A stretch of DNA of 39,042 nt from Escherichia phage CurroJimenez_Bas106. The notes beneath the pieces were generated by a model that was given only the letters and a program-made list of their open reading frames with translations, had not been told where the DNA came from and made no database searches. The position numbers and the translations under genes were made by a program. Below are positions 16,537 to 36,130 of this stretch, piece after piece (the first letter of the stretch is position 1; every line of letters starts with the position of its first letter). The stretch lies in sequence record PQ850599.1; one strand, 5' to 3'.

Positions 16537-17694
16537 CTATGCCACTTTTTCATCAAGCCAATCTGCCCACCACTGCATCATTTCTCTGCGCTTATCAAGA
16601 TACTGAGCATGGTTGTAAATTCCACGCACAGATCCGCCGTTGGCATGTGCCAGTTGCACTTCAATAGCGTCAGCAGGCCATTCGTGCTCGTTCATAATCG
16701 TGCTGAATTCATGCCTGAATCCGTGACCGCTTTCCAGACCCTCATAGCCGATTTGTTTGATCACAAGTAGCACCGCGTTCTCGCAGATTGGCTTTTTCTT
16801 ATCGTTGCGCCCGGCAAAAACAAACTCTGATACTGGTTTGGTGATTGAGCTTAGCGTAGTGAGAAGTTCAACCACCTGGTCTGACATCGGTACTACATGA
16901 ATTTTGCGGCCCTTCATCACACTGGCGTCGATAGTGATAATCCTGTTTTCAAAATCGACGTTCTTCCATTGCATGGAACGAAGCTCTTTCGTTCTTAGGG
17001 CTGTGTAGCGTAAAACTTTGGTCGCAATGAGCGATACGATGCTTCCTGAAAATGTTGCCAGTGCTTTGTTGAATGCAGGGATCTGGTCTGCTGGAAGAAA
17101 CGGGAAGTTCTTCTTGCGGTATCCTTTCATGGCATCTGCAAGGTCAGGTGCCGGGTTATATTTAGCCCTTCCGGTGACAATAGCGTAACGAAAAACCTCG
17201 CCGCATCTTCTGCGGGCTTTGTTGGCTCGCTCCATTGCACCGCGATCTTCAAATCTGCGGATTACTTCCAGCAGTTGCATCGGCTCAATATCCTGAATCT
17301 CAAGACCGCCGATGATGGGTAAAATGTCGTCATCAAACATTTTGGCAAGTTCAGTTGCATAGCCTACTGACCAGACTTGCTTCTTGTGCTCGTACCATTC
17401 CTTGTAAATCGCACTAAATGAATTGTTGTTAGACGAAGCCTTTTTCGCCTTTACCGGATCGATGCCAACCGAGATGTCTTTCCTCGCAGTCCATGCCTTA
17501 TCCCTTGCTTCCTGCAAAGTCATAAGCGGATATTTTCCGACAGTCAGGATTTTCTCCTTACCGTCAATCTTGTAGCGAAGCTGCCATACCTTTTTCCCTG
17601 ATACAGGGACATAAAGGTACAGGCCATTACCATCGAGTAGGCGGTATGGTTTTTCTTTCGGCTTTGCTGCTTCAATCTGCTTAACGGTGAGCAT
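16537..17694 (-). CDS. int: tyrosine integrase, P4 family
   Basis: 385 aa from ATG at 17694 (MLTVKQIEAAKPKEKPYRLLDGNGLYLYV... is the typical P4-type N-terminus); C-terminus has R...HxxR...Y catalytic-domain features. An alternative GTG at 17730 adds 12 codons. Confidence 0.85.
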   Translation of the reverse strand: MLTVKQIEAAKPKEKPYRLLDGNGLYLYVPVSGKKVWQLRYKIDGKEKILTVGKYPLMTLQEARDKAWTARKDISVGIDPVKAKKASSNNNSFSAIYKEWYEHKKQVWSVGYATELAKMFDDDILPIIGGLEIQDIEPMQLLEVIRRFEDRGAMERANKARRRCGEVFRYAIVTGRAKYNPAPDLADAMKGYRKKNFPFLPADQIPAFNKALATFSGSIVSLIATKVLRYTALRTKELRSMQWKNVDFENRIITIDASVMKGRKIHVVPMSDQVVELLTTLSSITKPVSEFVFAGRNDKKKPICENAVLLVIKQIGYEGLESGHGFRHEFSTIMNEHEWPADAIEVQLAHANGGSVRGIYNHAQYLDKRREMMQWWADWLDEKVA

Positions 17695-17949
17695 GGGTAA
17701 AAATCCGGTGGGTAAAATTATTTTATCCACTTTTTACCCGTCATGGAGTGCGGCTGTCAACGATCTGACGCGAACCATGACGAACTGCGAATCTACGGAA
17801 GACTTGATATTCAGGGGATTTTGCGGACTGGTACGGATGGGAGCGAACTGATAAATGGTGTCCCCTGCAGACATCTACTTGACGCGGCAGGGGATTGATT
17901 GGAATGATGTTTTTTAGATGTGAGAAATATTTTACCCGCTATTTTACCC
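17695..17949. repeat. five copies of 8-bp motif GGGTAAAA/TTTTACCC flanking the candidate attP core (putative arm-type Int sites)
   Basis: GGGTAAAA at 17695-17702 and 17710-17717; inverted copy TTTTACCC at 17732-17739, 17930-17937 and 17942-17949. Confidence 0.45.
17856..17870 (-). other. candidate attP core: tRNA-Arg (argW-type) 3'-terminal 15 nt
   Basis: Minus strand reads CTGCAGGGGACACCA, matching the 3' end of E. coli argW as I recall it; flanked by the 7-bp inverted repeat CCCCTGC/GCAGGGG; between the int and AlpA-like genes. Confidence 0.5.
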
Positions 17950-18144
17950 ATTAGCGCGGCTTAAGAGCTTATTTTTGAATTCACAATGGTCACGATATAA
18001 CCATCGTGCTCGCCCGTGGATAACTTTGGCTTTAGGCAGGTCTCCGGACTTAATCCGGTCATAGATGAAGGTCTTACCGAAGCCAGTATCGGCCATGATG
18101 AATTTCAAATCAACCAGTGAATCAGGCTGTAGTTCGTGTTGCAT
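17944..18144 (-). CDS. AlpA-family HTH protein / putative excisionase
   Basis: 66 aa; GGAGA SD 9 nt upstream; pattern TGF..T.IY..I..G.LP.A...AR.W typical of AlpA/Xis-like winged-helix proteins; sits next to candidate attP. Confidence 0.6.
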   Translation of the reverse strand: MQHELQPDSLVDLKFIMADTGFGKTFIYDRIKSGDLPKAKVIHGRARWLYRDHCEFKNKLLSRANG

Positions 18145-18187
18145 GAGTGCTATCTCCGAATAGGGAATCGAACCTGCAAATCAGGCA

Positions 18188-18210
18188 ATAAAAAACCGCC
18201 ATCAGGCGGC
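18188..18210 (-). terminator. rho-independent terminator (minus strand)
   Basis: Minus strand GCCGCC-TGAT-GGCGG hairpin followed by TTTTTTATT; overlaps the stop of the 55-aa ORF. Confidence 0.7.
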
Positions 18211-18369
18211 TTGGTGTTCTTTCAGTTCTTCAATTCGAATATTGGTTACGTCTGCATGTGCTATCTGCGCCCACAGCATCCAGTGGTCATAGCAGTCGTT
18301 GATGTTCTCCGCTTCGATAACCCTGTTGAATGGCTCTCCATTCCATTCTCCTGTGACTCGGAAGTGCAT
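18202..18369 (-). CDS. hypothetical protein (55 aa)
   Basis: Found by manual translation (below the ORF-track threshold): ATG with GGAG 9 nt upstream; stop codon lies inside a rho-independent terminator hairpin. Confidence 0.35.
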   Translation of the reverse strand: MHFRVTGEWNGEPFNRVIEAENINDCYDHWMLWAQIAHADVTNIRIEELKEHQAA

Positions 18370-18527
18370 TTATCATCTCCATAAAACAAAACTCGCCGTA
18401 GCGAGTTCAGATAAAAGAAATCCCCGCGAGTGCGAGGATTGTTATTGTCTTTTCTTCGTGCATTTGTCGCACTTTCGGCACCATCCAGATAGGCACATCC
18501 GTCCGCAATTAACACATATAGGCCACA

Positions 18528-29426: not shown

Positions 29427-29705
29427 ATGCAACTTACAAGTACTCGCAAGAAAGCGAATGCAATTACAAGCAACATCCTGAATCGAATTGCTGTACGTGG
29501 TCAGCGAAAGGTTGTCGACGCGTTAGGGATTAATGAATCGCAAATTTCGCGATGGAAAGACAGCTTCATCCCAAAAATGGGAATGCTTCTGGCTGTTCTT
29601 GAATGGGGTGTTGAAGACGAGGAGTTGGCGGAACTGGCTAAGAAAGTAGCCAGAATGCTGACAAAAGAAAAAGCCCCGAAGAACGGCGAATTCTTCGAGG
29701 CCTGA
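29427..29705 (+). CDS. cII: CII transcriptional activator (lambda-like)
   Basis: 92 aa from ATG 29427 (AAGGA SD); KSQISRWK..IPKMGMLLAVLEWGV matches lambda CII; the upstream leader matches lambda nutR/tR1. Confidence 0.85.
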   Translation: MQLTSTRKKANAITSNILNRIAVRGQRKVVDALGINESQISRWKDSFIPKMGMLLAVLEWGVEDEELAELAKKVARMLTKEKAPKNGEFFEA

Positions 29706-35974: not shown

Positions 35975-36049
35975 GGGTCAGTCGTATAAAGGTCATTACG
36001 GAAGGCTGTTAACCTTCTTATCGTGGTTCGAGTCCACGCTGTCCCGCCA
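35975..36049 (+). tRNA. tRNA-Asn (anticodon GUU)
   Basis: Hand-folded 75 nt cloverleaf: acceptor GGGTCAG/CTGTCCC (one T-T mismatch), anticodon stem GAAGG/CCTTC, loop CTGTTAA, T-arm CGTGG-TTCGAGT-CCACG, discriminator G, encoded CCA. Confidence 0.7.
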
Positions 36050-36054
36050 AATAT

Positions 36055-36130
36055 GCTGGTTTAGCTCCAATGGTAGAGCAGTCGCCTTGTAAGCGAATGG
36101 GTAGCGGTTCAAGTCCGTTAACCAGCACCA
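36055..36130 (+). tRNA. tRNA-Thr (anticodon UGU)
   Basis: Hand-folded 76 nt cloverleaf: perfect acceptor GCTGGTT/AACCAGC, D-stem GCTC/GAGC, anticodon loop CTTGTAA, T-arm AGCGG-TTCAAGT-CCGTT, discriminator A, encoded CCA. Confidence 0.75.

Follow-up and report, generated by a model that had tools for sequence, protein, structure and literature searches.

The region 17695-18180 of the genome sequence of Escherichia phage CurroJimenez_Bas106 (PQ850599.1; the whole analysed stretch of 39,042 nt is referred to as the window) was examined computationally. Judged from its sequence, it is the attP site and regulatory region of an IntS/TorI recombination module of the KplE1/HK620/Sf6 type, whose target is the bacterial tRNA gene argW. 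In the leader directly before torI, the gene of the recombination directionality factor (RDF), this module carries a 16-nt copy of the argW T-arm in addition to the argW 3' end in the attP core. By its pattern of conservation the T-arm copy is an ancient element, which is selected where it is present and dispensable. The inferred reading is that it reproduces the left half-site of attB and is putatively bound by the core-binding/catalytic domain of the integrase, which would control torI. Taken as a whole, the identity of the module, the T-arm copy as a selected cis element and the half-site function inferred for it form the best explanation of the data, and this explanation is given about an even chance of being correct.

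Both pieces of tRNA sequence at the locus match argW of E. coli K-12. The attP core had been recognized in an earlier note on this DNA, at 17870-17856 of the minus strand (CTGCAGGGGACACCA), as the 3' end of argW; the comparison with K-12 confirmed this, and the identity runs one base further, to 16 nt (17870-17855). For the second piece, the note had claimed that 18179-18163 matches the tRNA segment immediately 5' of the core. This holds for 16 nt (TTGCAGGTTCGATTCC, 18179-18164, minus strand), which are an exact match to the argW bases directly 5' of the core, and not for the 17th base, which is C at 18163 and T in the tRNA. In K-12 argW the two pieces abut (...TTGCAGGTTCGATTC followed by CTGCAGGGGACACCA; gene end ...GGGCTAATTGCAGGTTCGATTCCTGCAGGGGACACCA). 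In the window they are found on the same strand and in the same order, 293 bp apart (about 290 bp had been estimated), with torI and the P arm of attP between them. Each piece occurs once in the window, where 0.04 matches would be expected even with two mismatches allowed. The 13-mer CAGGTTCGATTCC, which directly precedes the overlap TGCAGGG in argW, is the same 13-mer that is found at 18176-18164. No tRNA gene was called at the locus by ARAGORN, and the pieces are therefore considered fragments; its only calls in the window were the genes of tRNA-Asn(GTT) and tRNA-Thr(TGT), located 5 bp apart on the plus strand (35975-36130). No Rfam tRNA match was found in 17500-18500. On the 5' side of the T-arm copy the similarity to the tRNA amounts to 6 of 12 bases with one gap, which is not significant, and the ends of the 293-bp 'insert' show neither a target-site duplication nor inverted repeats.

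The T-loop is a common motif, and a chance resemblance to its generic form GGTTCGAnTCC has to be considered, the more so as the first TTGC of the copy can be read as a homologue of the lambda CII box. For an exact 16-mer, or for the 12-mer beyond this TTGC, in register, on the same strand and within less than 300 bp, the expectation is ~1e-5 or less. Together with the recurrence of the copy at the same place in at least 12 lineages, which in itself already refutes chance, this leaves such a coincidence a practically negligible probability. As the two pieces are exactly contiguous in argW, the source of the T-arm copy was the tRNA gene or else an earlier att site with a larger part of it. Its presence in a phage is unexpected, because site-specific recombination does not duplicate tRNA sequence located 5' of the crossover.

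The leader sequence ATTGCCTGATTTGCAGGTTCGATTCCCTATTCGGAGATAGCACTCATG is identical in phages HK620 and Sf6 and differs by one base in the KplE1 prophage (CPS-53) of K-12, and it is located behind three different upstream flanks; the T-arm copy itself is identical in all three elements. TorI homologues were collected from species-representative genomes, by protein search and contig look-ups, and from phage records. In at least 12 lineages the RDF start is preceded, at a distance of 17-30 nt, by the motif (C)AGGTTCGATTCC(C); among them are Escherichia, Atlantibacter, Citrobacter, Cedecea, Hafnia, Edwardsiella, Pantoea stewartii, a second Pantoea and Serratia fonticola. The set also comprises the Salmonella phages Emek and g341c, which have an RDF of 51% identity and arm sites of the form GGGCATAA, and the Erwinia phages phiEt88 (RDF 39% identical) and Midgardsormr38. 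The last of these carries two tandem copies of CAGGTTCGATTCCC, 16 bp apart, right before the ribosome-binding site of the excisionase gene (locus L293, ~1862-1893). In other genera the flanks of the motif are fully diverged while the motif is almost invariant. Scans of viral and metagenome sequences with the integrase or TorI as query returned E. coli-type loci only, which were used for the analysis of polymorphism.

Conservation was quantified in a MAFFT alignment of the leader-torI-P arm-core stretch from nine non-redundant lineages. Within this stretch, CAGGTTCGATTCC was the most conserved non-coding 13-mer, with 1.7% deviation from consensus. The upstream leader deviated by 48%, the third codon positions of torI by 31%, the P arm overall by 25%, the arm sites by 2.1% and the overlap TGCAGGG by 0%; the leader part of the alignment is anchored by the motif itself, though the motif keeps an almost fixed distance to the start codon. 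In the T-arm copy, 70 E. coli-type haplotypes gave a minor-haplotype count of 0.2-0.3 per site, versus 3.1-3.3 at torI synonymous sites, an approximately tenfold deficit; the haplotypes, like the nine lineages, are related and do not represent independent samples. Near-invariance amid diverged flanks and the deficit of polymorphism are together taken as the signature of a selected cis element.

The copy could also be a neutral scar, i.e. a non-functional remnant of an old rearrangement in which torI and the P arm were inserted into a longer tRNA-identical block, or in which a deletion remnant (argW'-torI-attR) was recaptured by a phage. The pieces that abut exactly in argW flank torI and the P arm, the copy is located where the exchangeable module ends on the left and lambda-type phages begin to differ, and several lineages manage without it, all of which would agree with a scar. 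This origin of the present sequence is nevertheless regarded as improbable, since the copy is near-invariant across genera against ~48% divergence in the surrounding non-coding DNA and ~31% at synonymous sites, shows the tenfold deficit of polymorphism within E. coli and is duplicated in tandem in Midgardsormr38. In most lineages, moreover, the 13-mer has not shared the decay of the 3' strand of the T-stem, which is intact only in Serratia, Edwardsiella, P. stewartii and phiEt88.

The lineages without a T-arm copy include Klebsiella, in which torI overlaps a gene upstream of it, as well as Mixta, Cronobacter, Rahnella, Xenorhabdus, Tatumella, several Pantoea, EhrS_49 and Dryocola. No relocated copy was detected nearby in the lineages that lack it in the leader. 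In Dryocola sp. (locus L096, upstream of 1501), the terminator and ATTGCCTGG are kept and lead straight into the ribosome-binding site, which corresponds to a clean deletion of the copy.

In the earlier note, the second fragment was thought to reflect a rearrangement or insertion that had once taken place at the attachment site of this phage. An event in this phage did not hold up, given the identity of the copy in HK620, Sf6 and K-12 KplE1 and its near-invariance across genera; an ancient rearrangement may still have been its origin. The originating event predates the divergence of these modules and was presumably an ancient capture or duplication of argW sequence. Several multi-step routes are conceivable, such as a deletion within a prophage (argW'-torI-P-core) that was recaptured or an insertion into a longer block of identity, and no evidence discriminating between them was found.

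IntS would exchange strands within the 16-nt core that is shared with the 3' end of argW, and integration would thereby rebuild the tRNA at attL. Arm-type sites are found on both sides of the core, with two towards torI and three or four towards int. TorI, bound at five GTTCG-type sites on the int side, would direct excision and, together with IntS, repress the int promoter PintS. With the terminator on one side and the ribosome-binding site of torI on the other, the T-arm copy is ~215 bp away from the arm sites at the end of torI. If the core-binding/catalytic part of the integrase occupied this copy, it would hold or block the expression of torI. Possibly, the integrase would bridge the T-arm copy to these arm sites at the torI stop codon and thereby loop out the whole RDF gene. 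The level of integrase would then gate the synthesis of the RDF and hence excision. It has been reported that low-level production of IntS is constitutive, that torI expression controls excision and that the torI promoter is 'non-characterized' (PMC2951348); the bridging proposal fits this published view.

The integrase is favoured as the binder because the T-arm copy equals the left half-site of attB, because the C side of attP keeps the same T-loop bases, and because the copy tracks the target rather than the RDF. The left core-type half-site of attP reads (A)TTCGATGTA in relatives from many genera, versus TTCGATTCC in the tRNA. In 43 distinct C sides the bases T-8, G-6, A-5 and T-4 are near-invariant, and the same bases occur in the T-loop of the tRNA and in the T-arm copy; evidently, these T-loop bases are what the integrase reads. 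Phage phiEt88 keeps the copy though its P' repeats are without GTTCG, and Emek and g341c keep it though their arm sites differ, while core and target are the same in all of them.

The strongest form of this proposal would be a mimicry of attB, in which free integrase, seated on the half-site copy, reaches across to the arm sites, silences the excisionase gene by looping it out and so gates the passage from lysogeny to excision. It is put forward tentatively, as a possibility held with clearly less than even confidence. If such mimicry were general, other tRNA-targeting modules of the RDF-attP-int order would hold a copy of the half-site of their own target. All RDF-attP-int modules that were found target the same argW core, and where other P4-like phage integrases were examined, the layout was different or the targets were not tRNA genes.

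Several observations weigh against an integrase half-site that controls torI. The copy is absent from about half of the examined lineages and is thus dispensable. The left half-site of attP tolerates much variation, and integrase binding alone gives no obvious reason for the invariance of 13 nt. The TorI pentamer GTTCG is contained in the T-arm copy as well, and base pairing is possible between its 3' part and the Shine-Dalgarno sequence. Moreover, no sigma-70 promoter that the copy could regulate was found on the torI strand, where manual trials with a -35 of the form TTxxCA gave no usable -10. Inspection of the leader by eye revealed no convincing match to sigma-54, LexA, TorR or IHF motifs.

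The pentamer raises the possibility of a TorI operator, at which the RDF would bind the GTTCG of the copy and autoregulate its own gene, as RDFs of the Apl, Cox and Vis type do. The known TorI sites are 8-mers with GTTCG, GTCCG or GATCG (PMC2951348), the copy contains GGTTCG as in TorI site I4, and TorI represses PintS. A second, weak xTyCG is located 12 nt downstream in some lineages only (GTCCG in Edwardsiella, GTTCG in P. stewartii). The flanks of the pentamer are different, however, from those of the TorI consensus (GTTCG-C-C/T versus GTTCG-A-T), and an invariance over 13 nt exceeds one TorI site. In phiEt88, moreover, GTTCG is missing from the P' repeats (GATGTAACC, GCGTTACC) and the RDF shares only 39% identity, yet the copy has been retained without change. 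An operator for TorI is judged unlikely.

Another possibility is an element acting at the RNA level, to which the pairing with the Shine-Dalgarno sequence belongs. In the leader of the torI mRNA, AUUCC would pair with the Shine-Dalgarno GGAG(AU) and GGUU with the AACC before the AUG, which would limit the translation of TorI. The same imperfect hairpin is the predicted minimum-energy fold in six of nine lineages, with the UUCC:GGAG pairing predicted in E. coli, and the spacing to the Shine-Dalgarno sequence is short (3-13 nt) and the orientation fixed. Against this, the fold energies are no better than those of shuffled sequences in most lineages (z from -2.9 to +0.3), the alifold consensus reaches only -2 kcal/mol, the pairing of the T-stem is not conserved, no Rfam family was matched, and the invariance of CAGGUUCG is left unexplained. 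RNA control of this kind is accordingly seen as decidedly unlikely. Two further RNA structures were rejected: a T-arm hairpin, as the 3' strand of its stem is not conserved, and a long-range pairing of the T-arm copy with the core in one transcript, which is unsupported in relatives.

In the records of HK620 and Sf6, the stretch containing the T-arm copy is labelled as CII-dependent pI promoter or as 'boundary sequence' (HK620: 'promoter, phage integration' and 'cII protein' site; Sf6: pI). According to these annotations TTGCCTGATTTGC would be the CII box and the T-arm copy a mere promoter spacer. The true pI CII box of lambda-type phages (TTGCGTGTAATTGC) does lie at the homologous place, after the same terminator and directly before xis. 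Here, however, the spacing is N5 and not N6, N5 boxes occur at chance frequency, and neither TTGC is kept (TTAC in K-12, TTCC in Atlantibacter and Citrobacter) though the supposed spacer is invariant. No acceptable -10 was seen, no promoter was called on the torI strand, and KplE1 is without a cII gene. The pI reading was rejected on the chance frequency of the N5 spacing and the lack of conservation of the box, and it is left with a slim probability. A box of the N6 form of lambda pI is located elsewhere in the window: TTGCTTGTAATTGC at 29460-29473 (minus strand, TTGC-N6-TTGC) is close to TTGCGTGTAATTGC and may belong to one of the CII-dependent promoters of the phage.

Of the readings set out above, the integrase half-site is retained as the preferred one. 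The positions of all elements are given in Table 1.

Table 1. Coordinates of the recombination module and of the elements of attP in the window.
Feature	Position	Strand	Description
int, IntS type, 385 aa	16537..17694	-	ATG at 17694; from ORF list, Pfam and aa identity
P' arm-type integrase sites	17695..17739	.	TTTTACCC at 17695-17702 and 17710-17717 (= GGGTAAAA on +); GGGTAAAA on - at 17732-17739
Degenerate P' arm-site copy GGATAAAA	17721-17728		from sequence
PintS promoter	17731..17760	-	-35 TTGACA 17760-17755, -10 TAAAAA 17736-17731; overlaps P'1 and TorI site I5
TorI (RDF) sites	17760..17850	-	I5 CAGATCGT 17760-17767; I4 TGGTTCGC 17770-17777; I3 CAGTTCGT 17780-17787
TorI (RDF) sites, continued		-	I2 CAGTCCGC 17823-17830; I1 CAGTTCGC 17843-17850
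attP core CTGCAGGGGACACCAT, 16 nt	17855..17870	-	last 15 nt of argW (including CCA) and one further base; holds the crossover region
Inverted repeat TCCCCTGC / GCAGGGGA	17861..17894	-	arms at 17887-17894 and 17861-17868; surrounds the C side; by inspection
Left core-type half-site (C side) of attP	17871..17880	-	AAGTAGATGT then C, next to the overlap
P arm-type integrase sites	17930..17949	-	GGGTAAAA-TAGC-GGGTAAAA
torI / hkaC, RDF, 66 aa	17944..18144	-	inside the P arm of attP
Leader between T-arm copy and torI ATG	18145..18163	-	Shine-Dalgarno GGAG at 18154-18157
argW T-arm copy TTGCAGGTTCGATTCC, 16 nt	18164..18179	-	5' strand of T-stem, T-loop and 2 nt of 3' strand
Cross-genus conserved core of T-arm copy CAGGTTCGATTCC, 13-mer	18164-18176	-	identical to the left (B) half-site of attB
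Intrinsic terminator (AAGCCGCCTGATGGCGG and T-run)	18187..18212	-	ends the upstream early-left genes; left border of the recombination module

The records of HK620 and Sf6 label the same 16 nt 'attP core' and the same repeats attP repeats. The 8-mer GGGTAAAA occurs seven times in the window against 0.68 expected, a number reached in none of 100 shuffled sequences, and five of the copies fall within 17695-17949, where the core separates three copies towards int from two towards torI. These are the five 8-bp repeats on both sides of the core that had been noticed before, and they correspond to the arm-type sites of the integrase. The torI stop codon is inside an arm-type site (GGG TAA AA, 17944-17949) and the int ATG adjoins the last arm site (17692-17702), so that both recombination genes are physically interlocked with attP. 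For KplE1, a 16-nt core, arm-type IntS sites (P'1-3), five TorI sites in two blocks and an overlapping PintS have been described, and intS is negatively controlled by IntS and TorI (PMC2951348). The PintS sequence of the phage is identical to the experimentally mapped KplE1 promoter, and the TorI motifs GTTCG, GATCG and GTCCG and their spacings match the published attL of KplE1 (PMC2951348). Int/TorI-dependent recombination has been published for KplE1 and HK620 substrates, as far as can be seen from the citations in PMC2951348. An attP of this type is thus already known (PMC2951348, PMC3509656), and in all respects that were tested the site in the window belongs to the KplE1/HK620/Sf6 module. 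The expectation of a P4-family attP just upstream of int was in this way supported, both by these published site maps and by the domains of the integrase.

The inverted repeat around the C side and the degenerate TTCGAT between its arms look, on paper, like a collapsed acceptor-stem and T-arm minihelix. The repeat could be a hairpin at the 3' end of torI or a symmetry element of the DNA. Its left arm co-varies with the acceptor of the host tRNA (TCCCTGCATA/TATGCAGGGA in Edwardsiella, GTTCCCTG/CAGGGAAC in Cedecea).

The junctions of a lysogen at argW could be located in K-12. The left end of KplE1 (CPS-53) has the order argW::core-P'-intS and the right end torI-P-core(pawZ)-dsdC, the split being exactly at the core; of the sequence that flanks the core in the window, one side is found at attL of K-12 and the other at attR. 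The split at the argW core is hereby demonstrated for the module, in KplE1 of K-12 MG1655, and not for a lysogen of the closely related phage Dewey itself. Of 5426 complete E. coli genomes, 938 have the uninterrupted argW-dsdC junction, i.e. the empty attB, and 3034 have torI/attR-type sequence. Lysogen junctions elsewhere in the phage genome, named in the earlier note as a refuting outcome for the attP assignment, are contradicted by these data.

Seventeen E. coli records contain an uninterrupted torI-attP-intS stretch, e.g. NZ_CP082824.1 (1538725-1539625) and NZ_CP081786.1 (39,448 bp). In NZ_CP082824.1 it is flanked by a tailspike gene and early-left genes. The 17 records suggest tandem lysogens, or excised circular phage genomes that were assembled as replicons. 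At the attR ends of E. coli-type modules, the sequence beyond the core differs (CCATC, CCAGA, CCATG, CCATA, CACTTTA), which suggests several chromosomal or tandem contexts for the same attR.

The 2.2 kb around attP are 100% identical to Escherichia phage Dewey (PQ850600.1) and share 96-97% identity with phages Louie, N7, HF4s, IME10, Sf6, HK633 and HK620. On the minus strand, the early-left genes are followed by the intrinsic terminator (18212-18187), a leader of 45 nt, torI/hkaC (18144-17944), the attP region and int (17694-16537), while the tailspike gene is convergent from the left side. The terminator is common to lambda-type phages with a different int-xis cassette, and the sequences diverge within the leader. 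The integrase comprises the Pfam domains Arm-DNA-bind_3, Phage_int_M and Phage_integrase, i.e. a P4-type arm-binding domain and tyrosine recombinase domains. Its amino acid identity is 99.0% to HK620 and 99.5% to Sf6, and 99.0-99.7% across HK620, Sf6 and related phages. The small gene, described in the earlier note as AlpA/xis-like, proved to be that of the excisionase TorI: along its whole length the protein does not differ from PDB 1Z4H ('Tor inhibition protein', E 6.6e-43), and it is 100% identical to HkaC of HK620 and gp18 of Sf6.

A 46-aa open reading frame (17734-17874, minus strand) runs across the attP core and the TorI sites. It is annotated as 'hypothetical protein' in Dewey, HK620 (hkaB) and Sf6 (gene 17); as it overlaps known protein-binding sites, it is probably not a gene. 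On the plus strand, a promoter-like sequence (TTGACG-18-AATGAT, with TG ahead of the second hexamer; 17879-17908) is directed antisense into torI, and its -35 is not kept in other genera. No Rfam family scored above threshold. A sub-threshold match to STnc130 (25 bits; gathering score 55) covers 18094-18221 of the plus strand, antisense of the 5' end of torI up to the bidirectional-looking terminator, and consists mostly of the terminator. These plus-strand features may point to a possible antisense transcript.

No description of the T-arm copy was found in full-text searches for its sequence and related terms, with an earlier mention possible in KplE1 papers beyond the reach of these searches. 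The region combines a known system with a conserved cis element that apparently went unrecognized. The attP itself adds nothing new, being a further member of a biochemically dissected module. The T-arm copy, in turn, is as conserved as proven integrase sites and is located in the uncharacterized leader of torI, where it provides a handle on torI-controlled excision in KplE1 and HK620. It would be an unusual case of a phage that keeps bacterial att sequence from the side of the crossover that is not supplied by recombination. Its analysis also corrects the CII-dependent pI annotation of 2001-2004, which was copied between records.

The closest known systems are the modules of KplE1 (CPS-53), HK620 and Sf6 at argW, the study of which is reportedly due to Panis, Ansaldi and co-workers, Clark et al. 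(2001) and Casjens et al. (2004). They have the same order RDF-attP-int, the 16-nt core, the arm sites, the TorI sites and PintS, with 100% identity in TorI and ~99% in the integrase. The T-arm copy is part of all three, and no substantive difference in attP was found. Compared to the int-xis-attP region of lambda (with pI, CII box and sib retroregulation), the module likewise encodes a heterobivalent integrase, which recognizes arm and core sites, and a small winged-helix RDF acting on direct repeats. In both, the module follows the same early-left terminator, and the RDF start is closely preceded by a regulatory element. In lambda, however, attP is downstream of int, whereas here it lies between the RDF gene and int, so that integration separates the two genes. 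Unlike in lambda, int has its own autoregulated promoter inside attL, and the element before the RDF gene is a tRNA-derived copy of a half-site and not an N6 CII box.

A second comparison concerns the tRNA fragments at the ends of islands and prophages, for which Williams (2002) is said to have given the sublocation rules of integration in tRNA genes. The core at 17855-17870 is such a displaced 3' fragment (pawZ at attR of K-12). In contrast to the displaced fragments at attR, the second piece is tRNA sequence located 5' of the crossover.

Finally, P2 Cox and P4 Vis are RDFs that also regulate transcription, through operators located outside att. The same has been described for Apl of phage 186 (PMC7498355). 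The likeness to the module in the window lies in the site of a recombination protein at a promoter or leader, by which recombination is coupled to gene expression. In Apl, Cox and Vis the RDF is the binder, whereas here the sequence is that of a bacterial core half-site of the integrase, and the evidence leans away from the RDF.

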